NCBI GenBank assembly: GCA_965250285.1
Contig: OZ252299.1
Location: 5,664,001-5,728,000 of the forward strand
From: Myxococcota bacterium
GTDB lineage: Bacteria; Myxococcota_A; UBA9160; UBA4427
Reading direction: 5' to 3'
Length of the DNA stretch: 64,000 bases
The position numbers were made by a program, and so were the translations under genes. The notes under the pieces are model-generated. The model worked only from the letters and a program-made list of their open reading frames with translations, did not search any database and was not told the origin of the DNA. Shown here piece after piece: positions 8,098-63,900 of the stretch. Every line of letters begins with the position of its first letter. Position 1 is the stretch's first letter.

Positions 8098-9885
8098 ATG
8101 GCCAACAAGACTCCCGTACCGCTCCTGGGTCGGCTCGCGATCCAGCTCAAGCTCGTGTCGAAGGAACAGCTCGGCTCGGCGCTGCAGAATGCCTCCGGCA
8201 CCGGCGGCAAGCTCGGCGACGTGATGGTCGAGATGGGCCTCATCAACCGCGCGCAGCTGCAGAAGCTCGAGCAGGTGCAGAAGGACGTCATCGCCAAGCA
8301 CCGCGCGAAGAAGGCGGCCGAAGCGGGCGCCGCGGCGCAGGCCGCACCGCCGGCTGCGCCCAAGCCCGATCCGGTCCACGCGGCCGCGGCGCAGGCGACG
8401 CAAGACGCGGCCCCCATGACCGGCGAGCAGGTGCTCGAGCTGAGCGAGCCCACCGGCAGCTCGGGCCTCGAACTCGGCGAGCCCGGCGGTGGTGGCGGCG
8501 ACGGTTCGGGTCTCGACATCGCGGGGCCCGGTCAGCAGAGTGGATCGGGCCTCGAACTCGCCGGCCCGGGCGAAGCGACGGGCGGGTCGGGTCTCGAGCT
8601 CGACGCCCCTGCAGGCGCCGCATCGAGTGCATCCGAGTGGGGCGATGACTCGCTCGAGCTCGGGGGGCCGGCCGCCCCTGTGGCCGAGCCCGCCGCCGCG
8701 CCTGCGGCGCCGACGCCGCAAGCGGCGCCCGCGGCCCCCAGTGCACCCCAGGCCCCGGCGCCGAGCGGCCCGCGCCTCGAGATCGAAGGCGATCCCGGGC
8801 TCGAGCTGAACCTGCCCGTCCCCGACGACGCCCATCGCCAGAAGCTCCAGCAGGTGCTGCAGGCCGGTGTTCAGGCGGGTGCGAGCGACGTCCACATTCA
8901 CGCCAACGGCCGGATCCTCTGGCGCGTGAACGGTGAGCTGACGAGCCCCGACGAGAGCGTGCTCGACCCGGCGTCGAGCGAGGCGCTGGTCTCGGCCGCG
9001 CTGACGGCCAGCGAGCAGCAGACCATCATGCGCTCGGGCGAGATCGACTACTGCCTCGAGCTGCCGGGCATCGGCCGCTTCCGCGCGAACAGCTACCGCC
9101 AGCAGCGCGGCTTCGACTCGGTGTACCGCGTGGTGTCGGCCGAGCCGCCGACCCTCGAGTCGCTCGGGCTGCCCGCAGATCTGAAGCGCTTCACGACGTA
9201 TCACCAGGGCATGGTGCTCATCACGGGCCCTGCGGGTTGCGGGAAGTCGGCCACGATGGCGGCGCTCGTGAATCTGATCAACGAAGAGCGCGAAGAGCAC
9301 ATCCTCTGCATCGAAGACCCGATCGAGATTCTGCACCCGAGCAAGAAGTGCCTGGTGAACCAGCGCCACGCGGGCCAGCACACCGCGAGCTTCGCGCGCG
9401 CCCTGCGCGGTGCGCTTCGTGAGGATCCCGATGTGATCGTCATCGGTGAGCTGCGCGACCTCGAGACGATCTCGCTCGCGATGACCGCCGCCGAGACCGG
9501 TCACTTCGTGCTCGCCACGCTGCATACGAACAACGCGGTGCGTACGATCAACCGCATGATCGGCGCCTTCCCCGCGAACGAGCAGGGGCAGATCCGCACG
9601 ATGCTGAGCGAGAGCCTGCGGGCCGTCATCTCGCAGCGCCTCGTGCCCCGGGCCGATGGCCAGGGCCGCGTGCCCGCTCTCGAGCTGCTCGTGCTCAACA
9701 AGGCGATCGCCAACCTCGTCCGCGACGAGAAGACGGTGCAGATCCGCTCTTCGATCCAGACGGGCAAGGCGCACGGCATGTACCTGCTCGAGCAGAGCCT
9801 CGACGAGCTCGCGAAGCAGAAGGTGATCACGCGTGAGACGGCGCTCAAGTTCGCCGAAGACGAGAAGCTCATCACCGGGTCCTGA
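8098..9885 (+). CDS. PilT/PilU family type IV pilus ATPase with MshEN-like N-terminus and low-complexity linker
   Basis: GASDVHI, RFRAN, Walker A GPAGCGKS, IEDPIE, ALREDPDVIVIGELRD, AETGH, TLHT, AIANLVRD. Confidence 0.88.
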   Translation: MANKTPVPLLGRLAIQLKLVSKEQLGSALQNASGTGGKLGDVMVEMGLINRAQLQKLEQVQKDVIAKHRAKKAAEAGAAAQAAPPAAPKPDPVHAAAAQATQDAAPMTGEQVLELSEPTGSSGLELGEPGGGGGDGSGLDIAGPGQQSGSGLELAGPGEATGGSGLELDAPAGAASSASEWGDDSLELGGPAAPVAEPAAAPAAPTPQAAPAAPSAPQAPAPSGPRLEIEGDPGLELNLPVPDDAHRQKLQQVLQAGVQAGASDVHIHANGRILWRVNGELTSPDESVLDPASSEALVSAALTASEQQTIMRSGEIDYCLELPGIGRFRANSYRQQRGFDSVYRVVSAEPPTLESLGLPADLKRFTTYHQGMVLITGPAGCGKSATMAALVNLINEEREEHILCIEDPIEILHPSKKCLVNQRHAGQHTASFARALRGALREDPDVIVIGELRDLETISLAMTAAETGHFVLATLHTNNAVRTINRMIGAFPANEQGQIRTMLSESLRAVISQRLVPRADGQGRVPALELLVLNKAIANLVRDEKTVQIRSSIQTGKAHGMYLLEQSLDELAKQKVITRETALKFAEDEKLITGS

Positions 9886-9940
9886 TGCCCGAAGCTCCAC
9901 CCCCATTCGGGCCGCGGAGCCCGCGAACGAGAGGCGAACC

Positions 9941-11008
9941 TTGGCCGAGATCGACAAGCTCCTGGTGCACTTGAAGGAGAACGGTGGCTCCGATCTCCAC
10001 CTGGTGGCCGGGCTCGAGCCGCGCATGCGCGGCAAGGGCCGGATCGGCGTGATCGATGGCTGGGGTGTGCTCGACGACGAGCGCCTCCGCGACCTGCTCC
10101 GCGAGATCACCACGACGAAGACATGGACCGAGTACGACTCGACCGGCGATCTCGACTTCGCGTACGGGCTCGAGGGCGTCGCGCGCTTTCGTGCGAACTA
10201 CTTCGTGCAGAATGGCGGCGCGGCGGCGGTGTTTCGGATCATTCCCGAAGAGATCATCTCGCTCGAGGATCTGAAGCTGCCCCAGGCCATTCACAGCCTC
10301 GCCGATCTGCACGAGGGGCTCGTGCTCGTCACCGGCCCGACGGGCTCCGGTAAGTCGACGACGCTGGCGGCCATCATCGACCGCATCAACAAGACGTACT
10401 CGAAGCACATCGTGACGATCGAAGACCCGGTCGAGTTCGTGCACCAGAACCGCAACTGCACGTTCTCGCATCGAGAGGTCGGTCTGCACACCGAGGGCTT
10501 CTCGCCCGCGCTTCGCTCGGCGATCCGCCAGGACGCCGACGTCGTGCTCGTCGGTGAGATGCGCGAGATGGAGACGATCTCGCTCGCGATCACCGCGGCC
10601 GAGATGGGCATGCTCGTGTTCGGCACGCTCCACACCAACAACGCCGCCAAGACGGTCGACCGCATCATCGATGCGTTCCCCGCCGACGAGCAGAACATGG
10701 TGCGGCTCTCGCTCTCCGAGTCGCTCGCGGCCATCGTGTCGCAGCTGCTCGTGCCGACCGCCGACGGCAAGGGTCGCGTCGCCGCCAACGAGATCCTGCT
10801 GCGTACCCAGGGTCTGCCCAACGTGATTCGCGAGGGCAACAACCAGATGCTCTATTCGATCATCCAGTCGGGGAAATCGGAGGGCATGCAGGCGATGGAC
10901 GACGTGCTCTTCGAGTACGTCAAGGACGGCAAGATCAGCGGTCACGACGCCTTCATGAAGGCGACGGAGAAGCAGCGCTTCGAGAACTTCGTCGAAGAGG
11001 TCGCTTAG
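9941..11008 (+). CDS. pilT: Type IV pilus twitching-motility ATPase PilT family
   Basis: TTG start after GAGG; GSDLHL, GPTGSGKSTT, TIEDPVE, VGEMR, GTLHT, NVIRE. Confidence 0.88.
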   Translation: MAEIDKLLVHLKENGGSDLHLVAGLEPRMRGKGRIGVIDGWGVLDDERLRDLLREITTTKTWTEYDSTGDLDFAYGLEGVARFRANYFVQNGGAAAVFRIIPEEIISLEDLKLPQAIHSLADLHEGLVLVTGPTGSGKSTTLAAIIDRINKTYSKHIVTIEDPVEFVHQNRNCTFSHREVGLHTEGFSPALRSAIRQDADVVLVGEMREMETISLAITAAEMGMLVFGTLHTNNAAKTVDRIIDAFPADEQNMVRLSLSESLAAIVSQLLVPTADGKGRVAANEILLRTQGLPNVIREGNNQMLYSIIQSGKSEGMQAMDDVLFEYVKDGKISGHDAFMKATEKQRFENFVEEVA

Positions 11009-11215
11009 GCCCCGCTTCGCCCGCGCCTGCGTCCGCGCGTCCGCGACGACTGCCTCGTCACCGAACAATCTCCTCGTTCGCTCGGCCCGACCCGCTTCGG
11101 GCCTTGGCAACCGGGCCCCCACCGCGCCACACTGGGGTGCCGCGGCGTGATCCGCCGCGCGGTTCATCCTGTCTCGGGTGTCCCGGTTCGGACCAGCGAG
11201 GTCAGCGAACAAGGC

Positions 11216-12379
11216 ATGCTGCGTCGTCTCGTGGTGATCCCGATCGCGCTGCTCTTCGCAGGCATCATCGTGGGGCTCCACTACTACCTCGCTCGGCGGC
11301 TGGTCGTCGCGCCGCAGTGGCCCGAGCCGGTCGAGTCGCTGCTGCTCGGGCTCGTGGTCGTGCTGGCCGCGCTGCTCTTCGTCGGCCCGATCGCCGAGCG
11401 CTTCCTGACCCCCGACCAGGCGAAGTGGATCGTCTGGCCGTCCGCACTCTGGATGGGCGTGGGGTGGTTGGTGCTGGTCGGGCTCGTGTTCACCGACGCC
11501 TTGATCGGGCTGCTGGGGCTCTTCGGATCCGCCGAGATGCTGCCGGTGGCCGCTCGAGTGCGTGCATTCGTCCTGCTGCTCGTGGTCGGACCGGCCACGA
11601 TCTCGGCCGTGAAGTCGGCGACGTCGAAGCCCTTCGTTCATCAGGTGCGCGTCGGCCTCGATCGCTGGCCCGACGGCGTGCGTCCGCTGCGAGTGGTGCA
11701 GATCACCGACATTCACATCGGCGTGCTGCTCGGGCGCGACTTCGCGCAGTGGCTCACCGACGAGGTCAACCGTCTTCAGCCCGACGTCATCGCGGTGACC
11801 GGCGACCTGGTCGATGGCACCGTCGAGCATCTGCGCGAACGCGTCGCGCCCTTCGCCGATCTGGCCGCTCCCCTCGGTGTCTACTTCGTGACGGGCAACC
11901 ACGATCACTACTCGGGCGGCCGCGACTGGGTCGCCGAGATCGAGCGGCTCGGGCTGACGCCTCTGCGCAATCGACACGTCGTGCTCGACGTCGACGGGCG
12001 TGAGGTCGTGCTGGCGGGCGTCGACGATCATCGCGGCGGCTACGTGCCCGGTGATGGCGGGGAAGACCTCGACGCGGCGCTCGCAGGCACGCACGACGAC
12101 CGGCCCGTCATTCTGCTCGCGCACGACCCGACGACCTTCAAGGCCGCGAAGGAGCACCACGTCGACCTGCAGATCTCGGGGCACACCCACGGCGGTCAGA
12201 TCTGGCCCTTCCACTATCTCGTCCGACTCGCGCAGCCCTGGGTCGCGGGGCTGCACCAGGAGAACGGCAGCACGATCTGGGTGAGTCGGGGGACGGGGTT
12301 CTGGGGGCCGCCGATGCGGCTCGGCGCGCCGGCCGAGATCACCAACCTCTCGATCGGCTCGCCGCTGTCGAACTTCTGA
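11216..12379 (+). CDS. Membrane-anchored calcineurin-like metallophosphoesterase (YkuE/YaeI-like)
   Basis: N-terminal TM helices; DIH, GDLVD, GNHD, LLAH, SGHTHGGQ motifs. Confidence 0.9.
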   Translation: MLRRLVVIPIALLFAGIIVGLHYYLARRLVVAPQWPEPVESLLLGLVVVLAALLFVGPIAERFLTPDQAKWIVWPSALWMGVGWLVLVGLVFTDALIGLLGLFGSAEMLPVAARVRAFVLLLVVGPATISAVKSATSKPFVHQVRVGLDRWPDGVRPLRVVQITDIHIGVLLGRDFAQWLTDEVNRLQPDVIAVTGDLVDGTVEHLRERVAPFADLAAPLGVYFVTGNHDHYSGGRDWVAEIERLGLTPLRNRHVVLDVDGREVVLAGVDDHRGGYVPGDGGEDLDAALAGTHDDRPVILLAHDPTTFKAAKEHHVDLQISGHTHGGQIWPFHYLVRLAQPWVAGLHQENGSTIWVSRGTGFWGPPMRLGAPAEITNLSIGSPLSNF

Positions 12380-12447
12380 GCGCGGCGCGAGCCGGCAGCG
12401 CATCGGTCAGGCGCGAGCCGGGTGCTCGATTCGCCTTCCGGCTTCCT

Positions 12448-14226
12448 CTACGTGCGATCCGAAGGGCTCGCGGCGGCGAGGCGGACGGTGAAGCATGCGC
12501 CGCCCTGCGGGTTCGGCGCGTAGACCAGCTCGCCGCCGTGGCCGCGCACGATCTCGTGCGAGATTGAGAGGCCGAGCCCGGTGCCGTCGCCCACCTCTTT
12601 CGTCGTGTAGAACGGGTCGAAGATGCGATCGCGGATCGACTCGGGCACGCCCGCGCCGTCATCGATGACGCTCACTTCGGCGCTGTCGCCGTGCTGCAGA
12701 CTCTCGATGACGATGTGCCCCTGGCCGTCGACGGCCTGCAGCGCGTTCGTCAGCAGATTGACGAACACCTGGGTCATCTGGTCGGGTGAGACGTGCGCCC
12801 GACAGTCGTGGCCGAAGCGGCGTTCGAGGCGGACGCCCGGGCCGATCTCGGGAGACGCGAGTCGAACCACGCGCTCGAGCAGCTGATTCAGGTTCGTCTG
12901 GAGCCGGCCGCCGGGCCCCGCGTGCGACAGCTCTCGCACGTCGCGGACGATCGCCGCGGCCCGGTCGATGCCCTCGACCGACTCGCTGATGAGATCTTCG
13001 CCGTCCTTCAGCACCTCTTCGAGCGAGGCGCCGTTCTCACTCGCCGCCAGGCACGCATCGAGCGTCTGCCAGTGCTCCCGCAGCACACCGAGGTTCGTGC
13101 GGACGAACGAGATGGGGTTGTTGATCTCGTGCGCGATGCCCGCGGCCATCTGGCCGACGGCGGCGAGTCGACCCGATGTCACCAGTCGGGTCTTGAGCGA
13201 CTTGACCTCACGCACGTCGCGCAATACCACGACCCGGCCGAGCGGCGCGCCGCGCTCATCGCGCACGGTCGAGATCGAGAGCGAGACCGGCTGCGAGTGT
13301 CCCGACAGGTCGAGCAGCTCGCACTCGACGCCCAGCCGATCCTCGGGCGCGCCGAGATCGAAGCCGGAGAGGTGCTCGCCGAGCGGGCGCCCGACGAGCC
13401 CTCGATGATCGTCGCCGAGCAGGTGGGCCAGGCTCTCGTTTGCGAGCACCACGTGGCCGTCGAGATCGACGAAGGCGACGCCCTCGTTCAGCGCGTGGAG
13501 GATGTGCTCCGAGATCAGCGCGGGCGTGGCCGTGATGTGCGAACCGTTCGAGCCCGAGATCGTCCAGAGCGAAGTCAGCGCGATCAGGCCGAAGCCAGCG
13601 GGTGCGAGGCGGGGTGTCTCGAAACCGAGCGCCGGCAGAACCACGTCGGACAGACCGGCGACGACGACCATCAGAATCACGCTGATGAGCAGAACGCGCC
13701 CCTTCGGTCGCCCGCGTCGGCTGAAGTCGGGCGAGTCGGCGAGCGCGCGTGAGAGCGTGACGTACGCCAACACCGCGCAGCCGAAGAGATAGACGACGCT
13801 CACTGCGAAGAGCGGGCCGTGGGCCGCCTGAGCTCCGAAGCGCGTCTGCTCGACGCCCGAGAAGACGCCGCCCGTGAACAGCTGCCCCACGAACAGTGCG
13901 CCGCCGACGGCGTACATCGCACGCCCGATGCGGCGAGCTCGCACGTGGGGCCGCAGTGCGAGTTCGAAGCAGGTCGCGATGGCCACGGGCCCGATGGCAA
14001 TCAGGGTGAGCCCCGATCCGTAGAGCGCGAACGCGTCGATGCGCTCACTGCTGCTCACGCGATAGACGAAGGCGAGGCCCGTATAGATCGCGAACAGCGC
14101 CATGATCCCACGCGTGTACGCGTTGCGTCGCCGATCGTCCGGGCTCACCGGGCCGCTCCACACCGACAGGCAGTAGGCCATGCAGAGCACGCACGAGAAC
14201 AGCGGAATCAGGGCGTACGGGTCCAT
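12448..14226 (-). CDS. Membrane sensor histidine kinase (7TM + PAS + HisKA + HATPase)
   Basis: About 7 hydrophobic helices, PAS-like region, AHEINNP H-box, NLLTNA, DDGAG, FYTTK, GTGLGL. Confidence 0.9.
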   Translation of the reverse strand: MDPYALIPLFSCVLCMAYCLSVWSGPVSPDDRRRNAYTRGIMALFAIYTGLAFVYRVSSSERIDAFALYGSGLTLIAIGPVAIATCFELALRPHVRARRIGRAMYAVGGALFVGQLFTGGVFSGVEQTRFGAQAAHGPLFAVSVVYLFGCAVLAYVTLSRALADSPDFSRRGRPKGRVLLISVILMVVVAGLSDVVLPALGFETPRLAPAGFGLIALTSLWTISGSNGSHITATPALISEHILHALNEGVAFVDLDGHVVLANESLAHLLGDDHRGLVGRPLGEHLSGFDLGAPEDRLGVECELLDLSGHSQPVSLSISTVRDERGAPLGRVVVLRDVREVKSLKTRLVTSGRLAAVGQMAAGIAHEINNPISFVRTNLGVLREHWQTLDACLAASENGASLEEVLKDGEDLISESVEGIDRAAAIVRDVRELSHAGPGGRLQTNLNQLLERVVRLASPEIGPGVRLERRFGHDCRAHVSPDQMTQVFVNLLTNALQAVDGQGHIVIESLQHGDSAEVSVIDDGAGVPESIRDRIFDPFYTTKEVGDGTGLGLSISHEIVRGHGGELVYAPNPQGGACFTVRLAAASPSDRT

Positions 14227-14479
14227 TCGGACGAGATCTCCCGGTCTGTGGATCGGCCGCTCGAAGCACAGCCTTGAACCGGCGGCGGTGGCTCCCACGG
14301 GGGTCGCGCCGATGCCTTCGACTCGCGGATCGGTCACACTCCCGGCCCCGACCCCATGTCCGTTGGACCCATCTCTCCCAGTGCCGGCTCCGTTTGCGGC
14401 AGCACGTGCGCTGGCCCGAGAGAATTCAAGCGCCAGCCGAGCCGAGCTCGAGTGATCCAGAGGAAGGAAAGAGGAAGCG

Positions 14480-48365: not shown

Positions 48366-48977
48366 TCAGCTCGCGGTGCTGGCGGCGGGCGTCGATGTGC
48401 GCGCGCGCCGCCGCGTCGGCCAGAAGCGCGCGGCGAGCAGCACGACGACGAGGCCCGCGAACACGAGCGGCTGCACGACGTCGGCCTTCACGAGCCAGTA
48501 GTAGTGGGCGACGGCCGCGACGGCCGCGACCCAGACCAGGCGATGCAGTACGCGCCAGCGCGCCCCGAGCCGGCGCATCCAGGCCCGGGTCGAGGTGATC
48601 GCCAGCGGCAGCATGGCGAGCAGTCCGGTCGCCCCGAGCCAGACGAACGGGCGCTTGCTCAGGTCTTCCTGGATCGAGGGCCAGTGCAGCCCCTGATCGA
48701 GTACGGCCCACGTGAGCATGTGGAGCACGGCGTAGGCGAACGCGAGCAGGCCGAGCGTGCGGCGCTGGGGCGCGAGGCGCGACCAGCCGGTCACGCGTCG
48801 AAGCGGCGTGATCGCGAGGGTGACGACCAGCAGACGAAGCGCCCACTCGCCGGTCACGTGCGTGATGTCTTCGATCGGATTGGCCGAGAGCTTGCCGAGC
48901 ACGGCCCCGACGCCCACGCCGACGAGCGGCAGCAGCCCGATGGCGGTGACGATCAGGGTGTCGCGGCGCGTCTTCAT
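48366..48977 (-). CDS. msrQ: Protein-methionine-sulfoxide reductase heme-binding subunit
   Basis: TG.WAL, LAITPLR, RR.LGL.AF.YA.LH, LAITS, W..LHRL, H. Confidence 0.93.
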   Translation of the reverse strand: MKTRRDTLIVTAIGLLPLVGVGVGAVLGKLSANPIEDITHVTGEWALRLLVVTLAITPLRRVTGWSRLAPQRRTLGLLAFAYAVLHMLTWAVLDQGLHWPSIQEDLSKRPFVWLGATGLLAMLPLAITSTRAWMRRLGARWRVLHRLVWVAAVAAVAHYYWLVKADVVQPLVFAGLVVVLLAARFWPTRRRARTSTPAASTAS

Positions 48978-48985
48978 CGGTCGCT

Positions 48986-49079
48986 CCTCAGACGTTGCGG
49001 CTCAGATCCGAACCGGCCGTGCATCACGCGGCGGCCGTGAGTCGGATCGATCGTGCCTCAGTAGTTGCGGCTCAGATCC
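48986..49079. repeat. 24-bp duplication of the msrP 3' end flanking a hairpin
   Basis: cctcagacgttgcggctcagatcc (48986) vs cctcagtagttgcggctcagatcc (49056). Confidence 0.85.
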
Positions 49080-50035
49080 ATGCCCTTGTAGAGCGAGGCG
49101 ACCTGGTCGCCGTAGCCGTTGAAGGGCAGCGTCGGGCGCTTGAAGAACTCGCCGATGCGGCGCTCGCGCGACTGGCTCCAGCGCGGGTGGTCGACGTCGG
49201 GGTTCACATTCGCGTAGAAGCCGTACTCGCGCGGGTTCTCGGCGCTCCAGCTCGTGTAGGGCATCTCCTTCTGGAGCCGGATCTTCACGATCGACTTGAT
49301 CGACTTGAAGCCGTACTTCCAGGGCACCACCAGGCGAATGGGCGCGCCGTTCTGGCCGGGCAGCACCTCGCCGTACATGCCCACCGCGAGCAGCGACAGC
49401 GGATTCATCGCTTCGTCCATGCGCAGGCCTTCGCGATAGGGCCACTGCAACACGCGTCGCCGCTGGCCTGGCAGCTGCTCCGGGTCATAGAGCGTCTCGA
49501 AAGCCACGTACTTCGCATCGCTCGTCGGCTCGAAACGCTCGAGCACCTTGCCGAGCGGCACGCCGACCCACGGGATCACCATCGACCACGCCTCGACGCA
49601 GCGCAGTCGGTAGATGCGCTCCTCGAGGTCGTAGGGGCGAATCAGGTCTTCGATGCCGATGCTGCCGGGCTTCGCGACCGCCCCCTCGATGGCGACGTTC
49701 CAGGGGCGGGTCTTCAGCGAACCGGCGTTGCGCGCCGGGTCGTCCTTGCCCGTGCCGAGCTCGTAGAAGTTGTTGTAGCTGGTCGCGTCGTCGATCGGCG
49801 TGATCTCGTCGTCGGCACCGAGGGGCGCGAGCTTCTTCGAGTTCGGCTGCACGTTGTCGAGCGGGCCGCTCGCGGGCAGCATGGCCGCCTGCGCAGCGCC
49901 CGGCGCGCCGAGGGAGCCCGCGAGCGCGGCCGCCCCCAGCCCGAGTGTGCCGCCGATGAATGAGCGGCGATCGAGGTAGTGGCGGCGGTCGGTCACGTCG
50001 CGTTCCGCGACGTCGGGGGCCGATCGAATCAGCAA
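49058..50035 (-). CDS. msrP: Protein-methionine-sulfoxide reductase catalytic subunit (Mo, Tat-exported)
   Basis: RRSFI Tat motif, [48 protein letters not shown]. Confidence 0.97.
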
Positions 50036-51105: not shown

Positions 51106-51873
51106 TCAGTCGCTGGGGAGGCAGATCTGCAGGTAGAGCAAGCCAGGCAGACCGAGCGGCCCGCGCCCGCGTTCGTCGAGCCACTGCGACTCGACGAGGT
51201 CGCCGGCCCGCGCCTCGACCCGGGCCCGCGCATCGGGGGTGGCTCGGACGGCGTGCGTGCGGTCGAGCCGGCGGCCGCCGTGTAGCGTCAGGCTGTGATC
51301 GACCTGCGCTTCGAAGCGGCGGGCGAGCATCTCGAGCGCATCGCGCCGCGCGCTCGCCGTGCGTCGCTGCGCACTCAGATCGACGCCCGCGACGCCGAGG
51401 GCGCAGTCGCGCCGCCGGGGGAGGGGCCTCGGCCAGATCGGCCGCACGCCGGGTGAGCGCCGCGCCCGCGCAGGCGGCGCCGCCTTGGGGCCACACGCGA
51501 CGACGTCGATGCGACCCTCGCCGTGCCGCCTGAGTGCGGCGATGTAGACCCCGCGCAGCACGCCGCTCACGCGTTCAGTGGCGACCTCTCGCATCTGCGC
51601 GTCGCGCCAGGCGATCTCGCTCGTCACCTCGGTCGGGCCCTGCTCGGCCGCCAGCGCAGCGAACGCGGCATCGCGCGCTTCGCGCAGGCTCGTCGCCTCG
51701 CGCAGCGCCGGCCCGCCGATGCCGAGCGCGCACCCCGGTGGCACGTCGAGGGCGCCCGGATCGGCGACCGCCGCGGTCGGCTCGAGCGAACCGAGCAGGG
51801 CGGCGACTCCGAGCACGCAAAGCACGTGCGTGACCGGAGCCGCGCGCCGGCTGCGCCCGGGGCTTCGGCTCAC
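51106..51873 (-). CDS. Secreted protein with two LPP20-like domains
   Basis: Hydrophobic leader; two CALG(I/V)..A...AR.DA...LA units; GTG overlaps the upstream stop. Confidence 0.55.
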   Translation of the reverse strand: MSRSPGRSRRAAPVTHVLCVLGVAALLGSLEPTAAVADPGALDVPPGCALGIGGPALREATSLREARDAAFAALAAEQGPTEVTSEIAWRDAQMREVATERVSGVLRGVYIAALRRHGEGRIDVVACGPKAAPPARARRSPGVRPIWPRPLPRRRDCALGVAGVDLSAQRRTASARRDALEMLARRFEAQVDHSLTLHGGRRLDRTHAVRATPDARARVEARAGDLVESQWLDERGRGPLGLPGLLYLQICLPSD

Positions 51874-52652
51874 TCGACGCTCGAGGTGCGCGGCGCGCCG
51901 TCGTCCCACTCGCTTCGCTGCGATGGCGCGGGGCGATCGTCGCGCGGCGGGTCGGCGGCGTCGCGCGGTGCGCGTTCGGCCTGCATCGGGGCCACACCGG
52001 TCTCCTCATCGAGCTCGCGGAACGCGGCGTCGGCCCGCTCGCGGACCGCCGTCCGGATCGACTCGGACAGGTTCGTCATGCCGCTGATCGAGTCGTTGAA
52101 GCGCTCGACGTCGAGGGCGACCAGCGTGTAGAGCGTGCCGTTGTTCGAGATCCACGTGTCCTGCAGCGCCGTGCCCGAGAGCGTCATCGACGTGATCTGC
52201 TTGCTGACGTCATCGATCGTCTGCTCGTCGGCGGCGGCGATGCCGAACTCGTCGCCGCCGGTCGTCGTCGATGAGTAGTCCTTCAGCATGGCGCGCACCT
52301 TGGTCTGCAGGCTCCGTGCGATCTCGGCGCGCGCCCGGCCCATGGCCGCCGTCCGCGCGAGCGCGGCGTTGCGCGTGCCCGCCACGGCACCGACGCCGCA
52401 GATGCGCGCGCCGTCGTCGTCTCCCCAATACGCCGCGCAGCCTCGGCTCACCCACTCGGGCGCGCCGTCGAGCTCGTCGGCCATGGCGGCGCCGGGGGGC
52501 GGTCGGTGCTTGCACGCGGCCGTCAATGCGACGGCTCCGGCGATCATCCAGACGAGCGCGACGCTCGATCGGGCTCGACGCCGCCGGGCGGCGCCTTCGC
52601 CCCCGCACGTCGGCGGCCGCTCTGCGGCGCCTCCATCGGGCTTGATGCGCAT
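51870..52652 (-). CDS. LPP20 family lipoprotein
   Basis: GAGGAG RBS; lipobox LTAAC; APEWV, CGVG, A..RARAEIAR.L, TLSG..W, LY.LV. Confidence 0.8.
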   Translation of the reverse strand: MRIKPDGGAAERPPTCGGEGAARRRRARSSVALVWMIAGAVALTAACKHRPPPGAAMADELDGAPEWVSRGCAAYWGDDDGARICGVGAVAGTRNAALARTAAMGRARAEIARSLQTKVRAMLKDYSSTTTGGDEFGIAAADEQTIDDVSKQITSMTLSGTALQDTWISNNGTLYTLVALDVERFNDSISGMTNLSESIRTAVRERADAAFRELDEETGVAPMQAERAPRDAADPPRDDRPAPSQRSEWDDGAPRTSSVE

Positions 52653-52900
52653 TGTCTCTACTCCTCGCTGCCCCGGGGCTCGCACGCGAGTCGTGCGGGG
52701 CGGGCTCGTCCCCGGCGGCTCCGCCCGGCCTCTGCAGGGGGATCGCGCTCGGGGTGCGTTCTTGGGTGCGGGCCGGGCTCCGGTCAGGCGTTCCGCCACC
52801 GGCCTGCGTGTGGAACCCCGCCCGCGCAGCCGGGCCCTCCCTGCCACGACGACGGCCCCGGGTGAGACGGGCGGGCGCGCGGCGCGAGGAGGAGCCAGGC

Positions 52901-54499
52901 ATGTGGACAAGGGCGGCGGGGACGGATCGGGCGCGGCGGCACCGGGGGGTGGTCGTCGCGGTGGTGCTCTTCGTCGCGAGCATGCTCCCGACCGTCGCCG
53001 CCGCTTCGCCCGACTGGGTCGACTCGGGTGGGCGGGCCAAGCGCTACCCCGCCGAGCGCTACGTCACCGGCTATGGCCAGGCGCGGGGGCGGGACGCCGA
53101 GGTGCGCGCGCGTCAGGCGGCGATGGCGTCGCTCGCGCAGGCGATCAGCGTGCGGGTCGAGTTCGAGCTCGAAGACGATCGCCGAGAAGACGACGGCCGC
53201 TACGACGAGAGCGTCGCAACGCTGACGCGGACGTCGTCCCAGCTCGAGCTGCAGGACGTGCGCTTCGAGATTCACCGCGACTCGCGCCGTGTCCATGCGC
53301 TGGCGGTCGTCGAGCGCGAGCGGGCCACCGCGCGGCGCCGCAGCCTGCGCGACCGCGCGCTGGTGCGCGCCGAGGCCTGTCTCGCCGACGCCGAGCTCGC
53401 GCGCGAGACGGGCGACGAAGCGGGCGCCGAGCGTCGGCTCGGTCGCTGTCGCGCGGCGCACGCCGAGGCGCTTCGACACGATGCGGTGTCGGTCGCGCTG
53501 GGCGCGGGGGGCGACGGGTCGGAGGCACCGGCGCGGCTCGAACGCATCGTGCGCGACCTCGAGCGCGCGGAGCGAGCCCGGGCCGATGCGCCGGCTTCGA
53601 GCGTCGGGGAGGCCGCCGATCGTCTCGCTGCTCAGCTCGTCGCCCAGGGGTTCGCGCGGCCGCGTCGCCTCGACGTCGCCGCGCTCGCCGACTCGTCGAC
53701 CGATCTACCGAGCCCTTTCGGCCAGGTCATGGCCACCGAGGTCGAACGCGCGCTGGCGCGGGCCTGGAACGAGCCGATGTCGCTGCCCGACGATCCGCGC
53801 CGCATCGGCATCGAAGGCTCGCATCTCGAGACCGGCGAGGTGGTGCGGCTGACGGTCATCGCGCGAGAGTTCGGCACCGGGACGCTGCTTGCGAGCGCGG
53901 CCACGCCCCTCGAACGCGGCGCCGTGCCCGACGGCGTCGCCTTGCGACCCGGGAACTGGAAGCCCGCCCTCGCGAAGCGGGATCGACTCGCCCACTCGGT
54001 CGCGCCACCGCCGAAGCCGTCGAAGCGCGCCGCGCGCGCGCTGCGCGTCGAGCTGTGGACCGACCGCGGGCGCGATCGCGTGAGCTACACCGAAGGCGAG
54101 GCGATTCGGGTCTTTCTGCGCGTCAACGGCCCGGCCTGGGTGCGACTCGTCTACGTGCTGCCGAACGGCCTCACAGTGCCCATCGAAGAATCGTTCCACG
54201 TCGAGGCACAGCGTGCGCACAGCGCCATCGCGTACCCCGGAAGGCTCGAGGTCGTGCCGCCCTTCGGCGTCGAGATGCTCCACGCCGCTGCGTTCGAGCA
54301 GAAGCCACCGCCGCTTGCGACACGCCTCGTCGAGGTGTCGGGCGAGCGCTACGAGGTGATCGACGACGGCGTCGACGCGCTGGTGCGCGCTCGGGGGGTG
54401 CAGGTGCGGCGAGGTGAGGCGGTGGCGGAAGACGTCGTGACGATCACGACGCTCGACGCGGCCGGGGCTGACGAGCTGAGGCCGCGCGACGCGCGCTGA
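52901..54499 (+). CDS. Secreted LPP20 + FlgO-like + DUF4384 multidomain protein
   Basis: GGAGGAG RBS; signal peptide; PDWV..YP..RYVTGYG; C-terminal LWTDRG..Y.EGE.IRVFLRVN.P, V.PPFG.E.L. Confidence 0.7.
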   Translation: MWTRAAGTDRARRHRGVVVAVVLFVASMLPTVAAASPDWVDSGGRAKRYPAERYVTGYGQARGRDAEVRARQAAMASLAQAISVRVEFELEDDRREDDGRYDESVATLTRTSSQLELQDVRFEIHRDSRRVHALAVVERERATARRRSLRDRALVRAEACLADAELARETGDEAGAERRLGRCRAAHAEALRHDAVSVALGAGGDGSEAPARLERIVRDLERAERARADAPASSVGEAADRLAAQLVAQGFARPRRLDVAALADSSTDLPSPFGQVMATEVERALARAWNEPMSLPDDPRRIGIEGSHLETGEVVRLTVIAREFGTGTLLASAATPLERGAVPDGVALRPGNWKPALAKRDRLAHSVAPPPKPSKRAARALRVELWTDRGRDRVSYTEGEAIRVFLRVNGPAWVRLVYVLPNGLTVPIEESFHVEAQRAHSAIAYPGRLEVVPPFGVEMLHAAAFEQKPPPLATRLVEVSGERYEVIDDGVDALVRARGVQVRRGEAVAEDVVTITTLDAAGADELRPRDAR

Positions 54500-54610: not shown

Positions 54611-55888
54611 TCAGGTCGCCGCCGCCTCGACCGCGATCAGCTCCGAAACGACGAGCCCGGCTTCGTCGTCGCCGTCGCTCACGTCGACCCGCTGCATCAC
54701 CTGCGTGATCTCTCGGGCCAGACCGTCGGTCAGGTTCAGGAAGCGCAGGAAGATGCCGTCGGGGCCATCATCGCGATCGACCACGGCCTCGACGAGCACG
54801 GGCTCACTGCGCGGGCCGGCGTGGAGCGCGAGCTTGACCTTGAATCCGAGGCCGAGCTCGGGGTGGCTATCGACCCGCATGCCGCCGGTGGAGATGTCGC
54901 GGCCGAGAAAGACGCGCGCGGCCTCGTCGACCAGCGCGACGACTCGGCTCTCGTAGTTCACGCGATCGGCGCCGCGGCGCTCGTTCGGTGCGGGCTCAGC
55001 GACCGCCGCCGGCGCTGCCGGGCCAACGACCGATGCGACCTTGGGAGCGGTCTTCGCGCGAGCGGGCGCCGGTCGCGCCGGGCGCTCGGCGACCGGCGAA
55101 GATTCGGCGACGTTGTTCATCACGCGCGAGACGCCGGCCACCTGGTGGCGCACCTGCACGGGACCTCGTCGGTGCAGATCGACGAATCGCTTGACGTGCT
55201 CGGCTGCCTTCTTGCTCATCTCGTCGAAGCGGATGCCGACGATCGTGCCGTCTTCGTCGCCGTCCTGGATGCGGACGGCCGTGCCGTTCACGCGCAGCAT
55301 GCCGGCCTTCGTGAGCTCTCGGCCGATCGCGAGGCGCAGTTTCGTGCCCTTCTCGACCGGTTGATCGGTGAGGATGCGGGCGCCCTTCTGCGAGATCTCG
55401 GCGAGCGTGGCCGGCTTGGCGAAGAGGCCGGTGCGCACGCGAATCTCGGCGCCAATGCTGACGCGTTCGCGCTTGCGCCGTTCGGGGCCGTTGTAGACCG
55501 CGTGCAGGAGCAGCAGCCGCAGCGCCATCGGATGCACGGGTCGATTCACGACGTAGTCGATGCGCAGACGCTGCATCTGACTGCGCAGCGTCTTCGAAGC
55601 CTGGTCGGCGATGGCGACGAGCGTCGGGCGCGGGCCGCCTGGCTGACTGAACTCGAGCAGCCGCTTGGGCGTCGCGATCACGGTGCGCCACTGGGCCTTC
55701 GCCTCGGCCGGCCGGAGCGCGCCGACGCGCTCCCGGATCGGGATCCCGAACGCGTCGAGCTGGGAGCGTAGATCGCGCAGCTCTCCGTCGTGCAGCAGCA
55801 GGATCAACGGGTCTTCGGTCGAGTGGGCCAAGTTCGGATGTTCCGCGACGGTGATGCGCCGCCCCGGCGGCGGCGTGGGTTGGGTCAC
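54611..55888 (-). CDS. Tandem PilZ-domain protein with degenerate receiver-like N-terminus
   Basis: ERRKRER/EISQKG and ERRGADR/DISTGG c-di-GMP motif pairs; start inferred. Confidence 0.85.
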   Translation of the reverse strand: MTQPTPPPGRRITVAEHPNLAHSTEDPLILLLHDGELRDLRSQLDAFGIPIRERVGALRPAEAKAQWRTVIATPKRLLEFSQPGGPRPTLVAIADQASKTLRSQMQRLRIDYVVNRPVHPMALRLLLLHAVYNGPERRKRERVSIGAEIRVRTGLFAKPATLAEISQKGARILTDQPVEKGTKLRLAIGRELTKAGMLRVNGTAVRIQDGDEDGTIVGIRFDEMSKKAAEHVKRFVDLHRRGPVQVRHQVAGVSRVMNNVAESSPVAERPARPAPARAKTAPKVASVVGPAAPAAVAEPAPNERRGADRVNYESRVVALVDEAARVFLGRDISTGGMRVDSHPELGLGFKVKLALHAGPRSEPVLVEAVVDRDDGPDGIFLRFLNLTDGLAREITQVMQRVDVSDGDDEAGLVVSELIAVEAAAT

Positions 55889-56049: not shown

Positions 56050-56538
56050 ATGGCAGACCGAGACGGCACCGGGCGTGGAAGACCGCCGAGCGACGGCGAT
56101 GCGGGCGGGGATCTCGACGTCGGCTTCGGTGTGTCGATCCCGGCCCGCGAGCTGTCGGTTCGCGTCAGCCGATCGAGCGGGCCCGGGGGGCAGCGCACCA
56201 ACAAGGTCGCCACCCGGGTCAGCCTTCTGTGGGATGTCCGCCGCAGCGTTGCCCTCGATGACGCTCGCCGGGCGCGCGTGCTCGAGCGACTGGCCTCGCG
56301 GCTGACCGCGCGAGGTGAGCTCGTCGTGCACGCCCAGGCCAGCCGCGAGCAGACGCGCAACCGCGCCGAGGCGCGGCGCCGGCTCGCGGCGATCGTGCGT
56401 GAAGCGCTGACGCCACCCGGCCCGCCGCGTCGCGCGACCAAGCCGACGCGGGGCTCGGTCGAGCGACGCCTCGGTGAGAAGCGGCGCCGCGGCGAGACCA
56501 AGCGGGGACGCCGTCCCACGTCGCGCGACGACGACTGA
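56050..56538 (+). CDS. arfB: Alternative ribosome rescue peptidyl-tRNA hydrolase ArfB
   Basis: RSSGPGGQ.TNK, REQ.RN, basic tail R.TKPT.GS..RRL..KR. Confidence 0.93.
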   Translation: MADRDGTGRGRPPSDGDAGGDLDVGFGVSIPARELSVRVSRSSGPGGQRTNKVATRVSLLWDVRRSVALDDARRARVLERLASRLTARGELVVHAQASREQTRNRAEARRRLAAIVREALTPPGPPRRATKPTRGSVERRLGEKRRRGETKRGRRPTSRDDD

Positions 56539-57239: not shown

Positions 57240-57476
57240 ATGGCAGCACGAAAGAGTTCGAAGAAGACGGCAAAGAAGAAGGGGACCTGGGGAGGCCGGC
57301 GCCCGGGCGCGGGTCGCCCGAAGGGCTCCGGCAAGGGCCCGTCACCCGATTCGCGGCGAAACCGGGTGGCGGTGATGCTCACGGACATCGAGCTGAAGTC
57401 CTTGCGCAGCCAGGCGAAGAAGAAGGGGCTTCCGGTCTCGACCGTGGCCTACGAGTACATCGCCCGGTCCCTCTAG
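57240..57476 (+). CDS. Small basic DNA-binding protein (Lys-rich tail + GRP/AT-hook-like motif + ribbon-helix-helix), 78 aa
   Basis: GGAGA RBS; MAARKSSKKTAKKK-WGGRRPGAGRPKGSG-RVAVMLTDIELKSLRSQAKKKGLPVSTVAYEYI. Confidence 0.75.
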   Translation: MAARKSSKKTAKKKGTWGGRRPGAGRPKGSGKGPSPDSRRNRVAVMLTDIELKSLRSQAKKKGLPVSTVAYEYIARSL

Positions 57477-57589: not shown

Positions 57590-58372
57590 TCAGCTGCCCT
57601 CGGCTGATTGGGGCAGCAGTGCATCCACGCGCTCGACGAGTCGCTGCATGTCGTCGCGCACCCGCTGTCCGCGGATGTGCGGGATGATCTCGACGCGCCG
57701 CCAGTACGGATAACACTCGCGGTTTCGCTCGGGGCAGCTCGCCGGCGGGCGGGCGTACGACGAAGACGAGATCAGCCCGAGCCGCTGCATGTCGTCACGG
57801 TCGCTCTTCGAGAGCGCCCACTCACTCGACAGGTAGATCATCACGCCGAGCGGTCGCTGATGCGATCCGACGAGGTTGGTCACATACGGGTCGCGTCGGG
57901 CGCGCGGGTCGGCGTGGCCGCGCAGCTCGATCGCTTCGACGTTCTGCCAGACGGCGTCGCGCTGGCGCAGTGATCGGAGCAACAGCGAGACCGCCAGCTG
58001 CACCTTGCGCATGCCCTCTTCGTTCAGCTGAGCGCTCGTTGGATCGTCGAAGAGCCGGTCGCCGAACGTGATCGCGCCCGTCTCGCAGCTGGGCGACAAA
58101 CCCTCGGCCTGCAGCTCGACGTTCTCGCAGATCTCTCGAAGCGTGTCCCGCCACGCGAGGGCGAGGGACGACCGCGCATCGAGCTCGGCGCGGATGCGCG
58201 GGGACGGGTCGGGGGCCGGCTCGACCGGGGCCTGGACCGGTGCGTCTCGATCCACCGCAGCCACCAGCAGCAGGATGCCGGCCACGGCCGCGCCGATGTA
58301 GGCGATCGCGACGAAGACGTCGCCGGCGGGGCTGGTCTCGCGGCCGCCGAACGCCGAGTGCCGGCGCGCCAC
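57590..58372 (-). CDS. ZorB/MotB-like protein (TM with Asp + OmpA-like peptidoglycan-binding domain)
   Basis: GDVFVAIAYIG TM, LF..SA.L..G, IELRGHAD, NLVGS.QR, RRVEI. Confidence 0.75.
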   Translation of the reverse strand: MARRHSAFGGRETSPAGDVFVAIAYIGAAVAGILLLVAAVDRDAPVQAPVEPAPDPSPRIRAELDARSSLALAWRDTLREICENVELQAEGLSPSCETGAITFGDRLFDDPTSAQLNEEGMRKVQLAVSLLLRSLRQRDAVWQNVEAIELRGHADPRARRDPYVTNLVGSHQRPLGVMIYLSSEWALSKSDRDDMQRLGLISSSSYARPPASCPERNRECYPYWRRVEIIPHIRGQRVRDDMQRLVERVDALLPQSAEGS

Positions 58373-58375
58373 GGC

Positions 58376-60835
58376 TCAGCGCTCCTGCTCTTCTTCGGCC
58401 GGGGTTTCGTCCTCCGCCCCCGCGTCGCTCGGCGTCGAGTCTGCGTCGGCGCTGCCGGGTCGGCCCCCGAGCAGGCCGGCGAGGCTCAGCTCCTCGGCCT
58501 TCTCCTCGAGGGTCGCGTCCGGGGCGAGGTCGGTCGCAAGCGGGCGGGGCGGTCCGACGTCGGCCGGGTCCCCCTGCGCGCCGTCGCGGCGGGCATACGG
58601 ATCGGGCCCCAGCTCACGACCGGCGAACGATGCGCGACCGGTCGTCGCATTGGCGAGGTCGCTCGACGTCTGGCGCAGAAAGTCGTAGCCGCTGGCCCGG
58701 GGCGCCGAGACCGGTGGCCAGCTCGGGCCGCTCCCGCGCTCGTCGCCGCTCGTCGCGCTGGGCGCCGGCGCGCGGTCGATGCGGAAGCCGGGCGAAGTCT
58801 GGCTCGCGGCCGGGTCGGGCGAGCTCGAGGCCGGGTGTCCTCCCTCGGTCGGAGGCGGACCGGGATTGGAGCTCGGGGCTGCGGTGCCCTGCCGAAGCGC
58901 TTCGCGGCTCATCTGCGGGGCGGGGGTCTGGCTCGTCGCCGCTTCGGACGTACTCGAGGGAGCCGTCGGGGCGCCGCCGGGGTCGGAAGGCGGCGCGCCC
59001 TGGGCCTCGACTGCGAGCGGTCCGCTCGTCGCGGGGTTCGGCCAGCCGAAGGGGCCCCGGCCCGCGCGGGGGTCGAGCGACGCGCTCGCCTGCTCGATGG
59101 TCGCCAGCGCCTCGGCCGTGTTGTTGAGCTTTCGGGAGAGATCCGCCGTCGAGGCTCGGAACTTGCGGCCCTCTTCGCGCAGATCGCCGCGCAGGGCGTC
59201 CATCGTCTTGTCCATGCCGAGCGCGTGATCGCCGAAGTTCGCGAGCGCGCGCGCGACGTCGGACGTGCGCTCGTCGAGCTGGGTGAGCGACGAGCGCACG
59301 GGCTTCATGGCCTGGGTCATCCACTCGCCGAGGCCCGTGATCTCGGATCGCGCGCGTTCGAGCGCGCTGTGCAGCTCGCGCGCCGTACCCTCGGCCGAGC
59401 GCATGGGCTGGCTCATGCGTTCGATGGTGTCGTTGCTCTCGGTGATCGTCTCGCGCAGGCGTCCGACGGTCTGGCCGAGCGCGTCGTCGACGGCACGGAG
59501 CGACTTGGTCAGGTTCTCGCCCAGGCCGGTGGACAGCGCTTCGAGCGTCGCGCGGATCTCGCCGAGGCTGACCTCGACGAAGTCGCGCTGCTCGCCGACG
59601 GCCGCGGCGGCCTGCTGCAGCGAGGCGCGGACGTCTTCGGCCGACTGGGCCACGACGACGTGGGTCGAGTCGATGCGCTCGGCCGTCGAGTCGAGACTCA
59701 CCCCGGTTTCGCGCAGGCTCGAGAGCACGGGCTGGAAGTCGACGACGGTCTGCCGGAACGACCCCGAGGCGGCGTCGACGGTGGCCGCCGCGGCATCGAG
59801 GGTCTGGGTCACGCGTGCGTGTGCTTCGCTCTGATCGGCCATCTGATTGAACGCCGCCGCGAGGCCGCCGGTGACTGAATCCTGGTGCTCGGTGGCGCGC
59901 TCGAGCGCGCCCTGGAGGGCGCCCATGTGATCGTCGACGCCCTGTCGCACCTGCAGCGCGAGGTCGCGGATCACGCTCTGTACGCCGGCGCGTTGCTCGT
60001 CGCTGACGAGCGTGGCGGCGTTGGCCGTCGAGCGCTCGATGCGCTGCAGACCCCGGTCGATCCGCTCGGTCAGGTCGGTGGTGAACCGCGTCAGCTCGCT
60101 GCCGAGCGCGACCAGCGACTCGTGCTGTGCGCGCTGGCCGAATGCGGTGAGCTCCGAACTCGAAACGAGCGGGAAGCAGCGCTGGACGCTGCGGTCGAGG
60201 ACCGATGCGGCGCCATCGAAGGCGCCGTCGATCATTCGGCCCGCGATGCCGGCCACGATCGACAGGCCGATCCCCCAGAGCGAGGCCCGCAGCGACAGTC
60301 CGACCTGGGCGACCAGACGGGCGGTATCGATCGGATCGGCTGCGTCGCCGGGGTCGAATGCCTCGCTGCCGAGCGCGAGGCCGAGCCCGACGAAGGTGCC
60401 GAGCAGGCCGATCGCGAGGAAGAGCGACGGGATCGCGGGCAGGAGCGAGCGCCGCGCTCCCATCGGGAGCAGCGGGTGCTCTTCGAGGACGTCGAGGAAG
60501 CGCACGGGCGACCGTTCGTCGGCGCCGTCCGTCAGGGCCGCGCGCCAGCGTTGGATGAACAGGGCCCACTCACTCTCGAGCGACGACTCGGCGAATGTGG
60601 ACATCACCTCGTTGCGCTGCGAGGGCGTCGGCTGGTCGCGGTCACCGGCGGCGAGAGAGACGGCGCGGCTCAGCGAGAGCACCCGCCACAGACGGATCAA
60701 CAACGGGACGTAGACGAACGCCACAGCCAGCAAGAAGGCCACGAGCACGAGCCCGATGGCCATCTGGCTGGTCGGATCGGGCGACCACAAGAGGTCGAAC
60801 AACCCGATCGAAGCGTTGGGGGCATACGAATTCAA
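58376..60835 (-). CDS. ZorA-like protein (MotA/ExbB-type TM region + long helical cytoplasmic tail + disordered C-terminus)
   Basis: TM1, periplasmic loop, IPSLFLAIGLLGTFVGL, ASLWGIGLSI, about 400 aa heptad-like tail; 3 nt from the MotB-like gene. Confidence 0.75.
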   Translation of the reverse strand: MNSYAPNASIGLFDLLWSPDPTSQMAIGLVLVAFLLAVAFVYVPLLIRLWRVLSLSRAVSLAAGDRDQPTPSQRNEVMSTFAESSLESEWALFIQRWRAALTDGADERSPVRFLDVLEEHPLLPMGARRSLLPAIPSLFLAIGLLGTFVGLGLALGSEAFDPGDAADPIDTARLVAQVGLSLRASLWGIGLSIVAGIAGRMIDGAFDGAASVLDRSVQRCFPLVSSSELTAFGQRAQHESLVALGSELTRFTTDLTERIDRGLQRIERSTANAATLVSDEQRAGVQSVIRDLALQVRQGVDDHMGALQGALERATEHQDSVTGGLAAAFNQMADQSEAHARVTQTLDAAAATVDAASGSFRQTVVDFQPVLSSLRETGVSLDSTAERIDSTHVVVAQSAEDVRASLQQAAAAVGEQRDFVEVSLGEIRATLEALSTGLGENLTKSLRAVDDALGQTVGRLRETITESNDTIERMSQPMRSAEGTARELHSALERARSEITGLGEWMTQAMKPVRSSLTQLDERTSDVARALANFGDHALGMDKTMDALRGDLREEGRKFRASTADLSRKLNNTAEALATIEQASASLDPRAGRGPFGWPNPATSGPLAVEAQGAPPSDPGGAPTAPSSTSEAATSQTPAPQMSREALRQGTAAPSSNPGPPPTEGGHPASSSPDPAASQTSPGFRIDRAPAPSATSGDERGSGPSWPPVSAPRASGYDFLRQTSSDLANATTGRASFAGRELGPDPYARRDGAQGDPADVGPPRPLATDLAPDATLEEKAEELSLAGLLGGRPGSADADSTPSDAGAEDETPAEEEQER

Positions 60836-60987: not shown

Positions 60988-63900
<2,913 letters not shown>

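Follow-up and report, generated by a model that had tools for sequence, protein, structure and literature searches.

What might a ZorA/ZorB-like gene pair be doing in a genome where no Zorya effector gene accompanies it? We addressed this question in a 64,000-nt stretch of DNA (the window) from a Myxococcota bacterium (GCA_965250285.1, contig OZ252299.1, positions 5,664,001 to 5,728,000), in which two open reading frames (ORFs) of the minus strand stand next to each other: ORF A (58376-60835, 819 aa, TTG start) and ORF B (57590-58372, 260 aa, starting 3 nt past the A stop). An initial annotation had read them as an orphan ion-motor pair, either an effector-less or trans-acting variant of Zorya defence or a domesticated ZorAB motor. 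Zorya systems of types I to III combine ZorAB with soluble effectors, and the transmembrane (TM) Asp and the Ser/Thr ring are common to all of them (PMC11946911, PMC11890865). The pair is Zorya-derived, yet it lies outside Zorya by the tests of the catalytic Asp and of the effectors. We propose, with moderate confidence, that it is a captured type I ZorAB core, predicted to have given up ion conduction and rotation, whose present role is that of a static scaffold or landmark in the inner membrane.

Kinship with ZorAB and the missing motor aspartate

Both proteins are single-copy in the one-contig genome of 6.25 Mb. Three hydrophobic segments (residues 29-47, 138-156 and 180-198) and the motifs GLLGTFVGL and ASLWG were found in A, whose domain order is three TM segments, a membrane-proximal cytoplasmic domain, a long helical tail and a disordered C-terminal extension; the three TM segments and long helical tail typical of ZorA in Zorya type I are thus both present. 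It matches the PADLOC ZorA1 model (E 1.8e-15) and, with 67.5 bits against a cut-off of 190, falls under the threshold of the NCBIfam ZorA model. The best PDB match is 8qyk (E 1.5e-5), the Foldseek ranks 1 to 5 are ZorA chains, above ExbB/TolQ, and an Atlas feature search seeded with the homologue P0155 had ZorA clusters among its returns (score 0.95). As for B, one TM segment (residues 19-37) precedes an OmpA/MotB-type periplasmic fold, and the structural model (15 rows, predicted local distance difference test score, pLDDT, 84) consists of the TM, a long helix and an OmpA-like domain. PADLOC ZorB1 matches it with E 1.6e-8, and Foldseek ranks 1 to 4 are ZorB chains (8vvn_B, 8qyd_F and 8vvi among them), above MotB. 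By its sequence, B combines what would be expected of a ZorB: a TM segment and an OmpA-like, predicted peptidoglycan-binding domain, encoded right after zorA.

The profile, PDB and Foldseek matches of both proteins agree with the initial annotation in placing the pair with ZorA/ZorB rather than with MotAB, ExbBD or TolQR, and its description of an 819-aa, three-TM protein with these two motifs, followed 3 nt later by a MotB/OmpA-type protein, was accurate. Type I ZorAB (E. coli 8QYD; Shewanella sp. ANA-3 8VVN; PMC11946911, PMC11890865) resembles A in its three TM segments, membrane-proximal domain and helical tail, and B in its single TM with an OmpA-like domain, Y/N/R peptidoglycan residues, four Cys and the adjacent A-B order. 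E. coli ZorB has two disulfides; in the B family, sampled as 120 listed of 241 homologues (one without its N-terminus, so that TM counts refer to 119), the four Cys (C82/96/213/220) are invariant in 120/120. MotAB, ExbBD and TolQR have the TM fold in common, as lower-ranked fold matches, but their described members depend on a TM Asp (PMC11946911) and they have no such tail. A survey of MotAB relatives omitted ZorAB (10.1101/2024.07.22.604496). Matches to SMC and apolipoproteins, together with the labels "MlaD" and "methyl-accepting chemotaxis protein" carried by homologues, were treated as coiled-coil noise. A complex prediction with 4 x A(14-214) and 2 x B(8-70), a job unlike the calibration, scored 0.00 with an uncertain partner fold and was left unused.

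The TM Asp of 5:2 ion motors is described as universally conserved and essential, and the D26N substitution in E. coli ZorB abolishes defence (PMC11946911). In B, the residue that pairs with E. coli Asp26 is Tyr25 (TAC, 58298..58300, minus strand; GAC in the sister ZorB of the intact locus L059, described below) and not Asp18 (FWISYAD26L vs the family pattern (W/V)(W/F)AxxAY/V), and the same register was obtained from profile-profile alignment and from direct alignment with the L059 ZorB. None of the 119 family proteins has D or E in TM positions 20-38, the catalytic position being occupied by V (55), Y (35), A (13), G (5) and minor others. By contrast, 67 of 68 homologues of a canonical Myxococcota ZorB, used as a control set and reading (D/E)YWxSYSDLMAGLL, have the catalytic Asp, with one gap. 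B therefore lacks the Asp26 equivalent of type I Zorya, and the titratable acid that a 5:2 motor carries in the B TM helix is missing from all 119 homologues. Outside the family, the more distant ZorB/MotB-like proteins P0319, P0374 and P0403 also seem to lack the TM Asp, with Asn at or near the site, and may possibly represent independent motor-dead lineages.

The Asp that the initial annotation believed to be the retained TM residue is Asp18 (58319..58321, minus strand), a juxtamembrane acid two residues ahead of the conserved Trp position (W-2). It lies on the same helix face as the catalytic site, seven residues cytoplasm-ward, the model helix reaches residue 15, and D/E occupies this position in 97/120 family proteins, so one could imagine a motor still driven by ions through Asp18 or another group, the more so because A of this genome keeps both of its filter residues. 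We regard this as the least probable of the readings considered here. Canonical ZorBs carry the same acid in addition to the catalytic Asp (56/68), 23/120 family proteins are without it, most A proteins have an eroded filter, and some lineages have dropped B completely.

On the side of A, the ion filter corresponds to Thr147 in TM2 (60395..60397, minus strand) and Ser185 in TM3 (60281..60283, minus strand). Among 87 aligned homologues, 59 have Ala at the first position, and at the second 38 have Ser, 22 Thr and 20 Ala; Thr and Ser are retained together in 15/86 family A proteins. The filter is intact in 5/5 canonical ZorA of the phylum and in the L059 ZorA, and in E. coli the combined ZorA substitutions T147A/S184A abolish Zorya defence (PMC11946911). 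No compensating acid column was found in TM2 or TM3 of the A homologue alignment. Because the TM Asp is lost family-wide and the A filter is mostly eroded, the A+B complex is predicted to be non-conducting. The wall-binding part of B tells a different story, with the predicted peptidoglycan-binding residues H153, Y163, S170, R226 and E228 in 120/120 of the listed homologues and R173 in 117/120.

Evidence of vertical inheritance and purifying selection

Strong matches were confined to the same family among 301 genomes across the phylum. Within that family A was found in 25/36 genomes and B in 16/36, and A was in none of the 24 other genomes of the order. Seven weak B matches lie outside the family. 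Six were examined as proteins with a TM or a Zor linkage: five show the TM Asp directly and four adjoin ZorC-/ZorD-like genes; one match (G155) is an unrelated OmpA-domain protein. The upstream neighbour of A (60988..63900, minus strand), which we take to be gcvP, the glycine dehydrogenase gene, is present in the fetched stretch at 19/26 family loci with upstream sequence, so the flank named in the initial annotation proved syntenic among relatives. A groups largely by genus, its tree distances correlate with those of gcvP (rho 0.65, Mantel p 0.0005, n = 17), and four supported splits are common to both trees. Codon usage is host-like, as had been noted (A at the 48th and B at the 32nd percentile of 3349 called genes), and no relative was confirmed on viral contigs.

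Unbroken reading frames occur in no fewer than 15 genera, with identities of 31-73%. By the crude NG86 method, the ratio of nonsynonymous to synonymous substitution rates (dN/dS) for the pair G000-G001 is 0.17 in the tail of A, 0.27 in its membrane part, 0.51 in its extension and 0.24 in B, with 0.09 for gcvP; the other within-genus values range from 0.10 to 0.46 for A and from 0.12 to 0.36 for B. Selection retains the membrane ring, the proximal tail and the terminal motifs, plus the wall-binding site of B where B is present.

Nine genomes have A and no B match. In one of them (G004) the contig ends inside A, while in the other eight the contiguous DNA after the A stop encodes a lipoprotein, a glyoxalase-like protein or an unrelated gene, and the A ORFs are intact (462-719 aa). 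B was also not found genome-wide in these eight; their completeness is 82-95%, so the evidence from the locus outweighs the genome-wide negative, and a weak B match in G035 (E 6.8e-4) was left uncounted. In one genus, B is present in one member and missing in the other two, and the gcvP tree places a B-less genus, with modest support, amid genera that have B. B is dispensable, and it would have been lost separately at least twice, probably more often. Rotation is unlikely for a complex that has no ion site and can do without its axle. In the stand-alone A loci (L095:8923-10782, L097:8721-10292, L098:9328-10737, L099:8754-10142, L091, L092, L093 and L094) the TM2/TM3 motifs are eroded further, with the membrane-proximal domain and the terminal motif retained.

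These losses could also be taken as a long-lived vestige, a system losing effectors, Asp, filter, B and A step by step and held meanwhile by weak selection against misfolding or by the gcvP transcript. The eight loci without B, the remnant in G032, the relatives without A, the long branches of B-less A and dN/dS values 2-3 times that of gcvP are what such a decay would leave. We consider it quite unlikely, given the intact frames over so many genera, the low dN/dS of the tail and the conservation of motifs, absent from the intact sister ZorA, inside an otherwise poorly conserved extension.

The search for effectors bears on whether the pair is still part of a defence system. No ZorC, ZorE or ZorF match was found in the present genome (ZorE and ZorF with one model each), and ZorE and ZorF were likewise found in 0/5 genomes with those models; the ZorF control gave no signal either, which makes the ZorF negative weak, and no genome-wide ZorG search was made. 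Matches to the EH-signature family, and likewise to a ZorC alignment of seven sequences that includes both ZorCs concerned, occur in 2/61 genomes (G005 and G042). Neither carries the A+B pair, and no ZorC, linked or unlinked, was found in pair-bearing genomes. An SNF2 protein (C1:2187378-2190341) was considered as a ZorD acting in trans and discarded, being unlinked and matching the generic helicase core only; the ZorD model also gives hits in 12/14 control genomes, and the ZorD N-terminal profile found no match. Around the family loci, 103 cluster representatives at most 5 kb from A or B were collected from 39 loci, and 97 were scanned with PADLOC after removal of four fragments and of the representatives of A and B themselves; the L059 ZorA and ZorB were scanned as well. 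Zor models matched 0/90 of the neighbour representatives of family loci and none of the window neighbours. The locus is therefore without linked zorC (EH signature) and zorD (SNF2 helicase-nuclease), and the zorE of type II or zorF/zorG of type III were not seen among the window neighbours or the 90 representatives. The absence of Zorya effector genes stated in the initial annotation holds genome-wide for ZorC, ZorE and ZorF, with ZorD models touching only an SNF2 core.

Two loci disturb this clean picture, each a single case: in G009, the gene of an 855-aa DEAD-box-type helicase immediately precedes a B-less A in the same orientation (L093:5909-8476), and a gene of the exonuclease/endonuclease/phosphatase family lies near A in G010. 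The helicase, the clear Zorya ancestry and the genome G005, which combines a B-less A on one contig with a separate canonical Zorya on another, are compatible with a role that is still anti-phage, as a sensor, decoy or scaffold without ion flow whose effector would lie elsewhere in the genome. We find this very unlikely, though a little less so than a motor running on Asp18: ZorC occurs in just two genomes, neither pair-bearing, the neighbours match no Zor model, the region is a stable housekeeping one with host-like codon use, and a motor-dead ZorB fails to recruit ZorD in E. coli (PMC11946911). In particular, the trans-acting or effector-less defence motor first suggested is unlikely because the catalytic Asp is absent and D26N abolishes E. 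coli defence (PMC11946911). Of the other suggestion, domestication fits, with no ZorC linked or unlinked, but an ion motor finds no support with the Asp in 0/119 proteins, a degenerate filter and eight B-less loci. Canonical or near-canonical Zorya-type loci were found in other Myxococcota-type genomes (L039:6397-13991 in G005, L038:6283-13698 in G042, and L084-L088), and in L083 and L087 an Asp-bearing ZorB had no PADLOC-recognised effector among the genes tested.

Origin, tail and proposed role

The nearest Asp-bearing relative with an inspected locus is L059 (OZ254080.1, record title Pseudomonadales MAG), where zorA-zorB-zorC-zorD and then a NERD-UvrD helicase occupy positions 6178-14287, an island with a GC content of 0.53-0.58 vs 0.62-0.65. 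Its ZorD matches PADLOC with E 5e-248, and its ZorC only a custom profile (E 5e-16), being missed by PADLOC at E 1e-8. The A and B proteins of L059 match the family profiles with E 2e-125 and 9e-66; the ZorA is 33% identical to A over 577 aligned residues and the ZorB is about 35% identical to B. This ZorB reads GDAWASYSDL, and Asp, Thr and Ser are all kept in the L059 ZorAB. In addition, L059 differs from the family in having zorC, zorD and the NERD-helicase, a lower GC content and no ZorA extension. Conversely, the family departs from type I Zorya in lacking the catalytic Asp and zorC/zorD, in its eroded Thr/Ser filter, in its vertically inherited position by gcvP, in the motif-bearing disordered extension of about 180-230 aa and in the dispensability of B.

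L059 belongs, with P0275, P0283, P0291 and P0294, to a four-Cys ZorB subfamily ("GGDxWASYSDL") containing the nearest Asp-bearing relatives found. The clade of the family plus L059 is supported by 99-100 in the Shimodaira-Hasegawa-like approximate likelihood ratio test (SH-aLRT). The A tree (90) and the full B tree (92) make L059 the sister of the family, whereas a B tree built without the TM leaves it unresolved at the base. An exhaustive profile search retrieved 24 clusters at E < 1e-50, the next one standing at 1e-29; four are visibly Asp-bearing, and four or five have no complete TM. In a TM-less tree of 30 rows (18 of these 24 clusters, the query, L059 and 10 outgroups), the 14 Asp-less B rows form one clade (SH-aLRT 91) nested among Asp-bearing rows. 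A metagenome scan with the L059 ZorB alone found nothing, and a scan with alignment A6 found 14 loci, 13 of which match the family profile and none of which has ZorC/ZorD, hence no second intact sister. The direction of change was likely from defence to housekeeping, though unproven, as the trees are quick and unstarred and there is a single intact sister locus.

The tail is the part of A on which a scaffold would depend. In the AlphaFold model (76-row alignment, mean pLDDT 67.8) the helical tail spans residues 226-585 (59081..60160, minus strand) and, at 1.5 A per residue, would measure about 54 nm if extended; its periodicity is weak (~3.5). Residues 216-400 are the best-conserved part of A (column conservation 0.71 vs 0.60 in the TM region). 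The "very long helical tail" of the initial annotation is correct for some 360 residues, but about 230 further ones are disordered. This Pro/Ser/Thr/acid-rich extension (residues 587-819; 58379..59077, minus strand), recognised by pLDDT < 50 and composition, begins about where the L059 ZorA stops in pairwise alignment: the latter ends at 607 aa in KRGIFPW, while A has GRGPFGW there and then ~220 further residues. The median extension among family A proteins is ~180 residues (66 measured). Two motifs stand out in it, GPDPYAR (58589..58609, minus strand), present as GPDP[YF]xR in 67/82 full-length homologues, and L-[SA]-G-L-L near the C-terminus (58469..58483, minus strand), present in 62/82; a looser form of the latter, of the type S[GAD]LL, occurs in 8/8 B-less A proteins. 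Both GPDPYxR and LSGLL-type motifs are absent from the intact sister ZorA of L059.

We suggest the following course of events. An ancestor of the bacterial family would have captured a type I zorABCD core; the effectors would have been lost, and the catalytic Asp would have disappeared once (Asp to Tyr is a change of one base); the filter would have eroded and the motif-bearing disordered tail been gained, and the axle subunit B would then have been lost repeatedly. A may still form a ZorA-type pentamer, with a helical bundle of ~50 nm reaching into the cytoplasm; E. coli ZorA assembles by way of its tail (PMC11946911), so a pentameric rod is plausible without a motor. Where present, the B dimer would pin the ring to peptidoglycan through its intact OmpA-like site, and the bundle with its terminal motifs (GPDPYxR, LSGLL) may dock cytoplasmic clients, in the way that FimV/HubP landmarks use their acidic tails. 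As a guess drawn from the neighbourhood, these clients could be signalling proteins whose genes are often close by, namely the PilZ and FHA-cyclase ones. A rod anchored in the wall whose acidic, disordered end carries motifs would most simply act as a scaffold or landmark. Such a "pseudo-motor", arising from one capture and stepwise losses, in which the ZorA rod is a housekeeping cell-organising scaffold family-wide, is a proposal that we hold to be as probable as its negation.

The comparison with FimV/HubP (PMC12918733) is a functional analogy only. These proteins share a peptidoglycan-binding periplasmic part, a membrane span and a long acidic cytoplasmic region, conserved at its end, that positions clients, but they unite LysM and TPR in one chain, in contrast to the OmpA-like B and ZorA-type rod, and homology was neither found nor expected; no LysM or C-terminal FimV/TPR domain was matched by Pfam in A or B.

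An ion-independent envelope sensor would use the same parts differently, B sensing peptidoglycan distance or strain and signalling down the A rod, in the manner of a chemoreceptor, to c-di-GMP (cyclic di-GMP), cyclase or FHA signalling proteins. A role in detecting disturbance of the envelope has been proposed for ZorAB, and a portion of the ZorA tail is similar to the signalling unit of chemoreceptors (PMC11946911); in addition, the binding residues of B are intact, and PilZ and FHA-FHA-cyclase genes recur downstream. The sensor is nevertheless unlikely, although we rate it above the other alternatives, since eight B-less genomes keep A with its terminal motif, which would make the sensing half dispensable, and the FHA-cyclase was not found in the present genome.

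Several observations weigh against the scaffold. A of the present genome retains both T147 and S185, and conservation of the tail is largely common to the intact sister ZorA (tail 29% identity), which may point to the demands of folding instead of a new function. Eleven of 36 relatives gave no A match; A is also shortened and fast-evolving in B-less lineages, and in G032 (L027:9300-10620) is reduced to collapsed fragments with stops, beside a B without N-terminus and TM. The two cross-genus comparisons of B-less A gave dN/dS of 0.59 and 0.77 at a nearly saturated dS. Of the nine supported splits in the A tree, two disagree with the gcvP tree, and the key branches have SH-aLRT supports of 90-92 from quick, unstarred searches. 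No client protein was identified, and no co-occurrence test (FHA-cyclase, PilT, lipoprotein, FlhA) singled out a pathway; the FHA-cyclase was not found here and neighbours co-occur non-strictly, the lipoprotein family described below is order-wide, FlhA is present in 8/26 A-positive vs 3/11 A-negative genomes, and PilT, found in 61/61, is uninformative. The flagellar and type IV pilus links were rejected on these counts, and no specific motility role is indicated.

If the scaffold reading is true, the family would be a natural motor-dead version of a 5:2 ion motor under purifying selection, the counterpart among motors of what a pseudo-enzyme is among enzymes. One could, moreover, follow in living genomes how an immune machine came to do a cellular job, the stages being the intact sister island, the Asp-less pair, A alone and the decayed remnant. 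Such a series makes testable whether ZorA assembly needs ZorB or ion flow and what the tail does beyond ZorC/D recruitment, and the living Asp-bearing, effector-linked sisters allow the comparison. ZorA/ZorB profile matches in core genomes need not, in that case, indicate defence systems. A literature search limited to listings and the opening lines of abstracts found no description of Asp-less or A-only ZorAB.

Neighbouring genes

The convergent neighbour on the other side of the pair (57240..57476, plus strand), the small DNA-binding gene of the initial annotation, encodes a 78-aa Lys/Arg-rich basic protein with a homologue in 10/17 fetched relative loci. It looks AT-hook-like and ribbon-helix-helix-like on inspection, has no Pfam or NCBIfam match, and is possibly a nucleoid protein or regulator. 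A promoter and terminator scan at the locus gave nothing exceeding chance. Further downstream, a protein with two PilZ domains (54611..55888, minus strand; Pfam PilZ E 5e-19) is a recurrent neighbour, its cluster being found at 9/18 loci.

In relatives, an FHA-FHA protein with a C-terminal domain that is cyclase-like on inspection, and has no Pfam match there, is convergent at many loci (L020:10290-11738). It was rejected as an obligate partner, being found in 16/36 family genomes, not in the present one, and in some A-less genomes. A lipoprotein with a Pro-rich linker and a domain without Pfam match (L031:10433-11017; L106:9967-10509, which is C1:5169966-5170508 of G000) is the next gene after B, or after A where B is missing, in 13/25 A-positive relatives. 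As a dedicated third subunit it was likewise discarded, since the family occurs in 40/61 genomes and is unlinked in the present one.

The present genome has MglB-MglA, PilT/PilB and a TolQRA-TolB-type cluster, and no FlhA. Within the window, an LPP20-type lipoprotein, a DUF4384-like protein and a third secreted-looking protein (51106-54499) recur near the locus in several relatives. The ribosome-rescue gene arfB (56050-56538, plus strand) belongs to the flanking housekeeping region, as does a pair at 48366-50035 (minus strand) that resembles msrP/msrQ.

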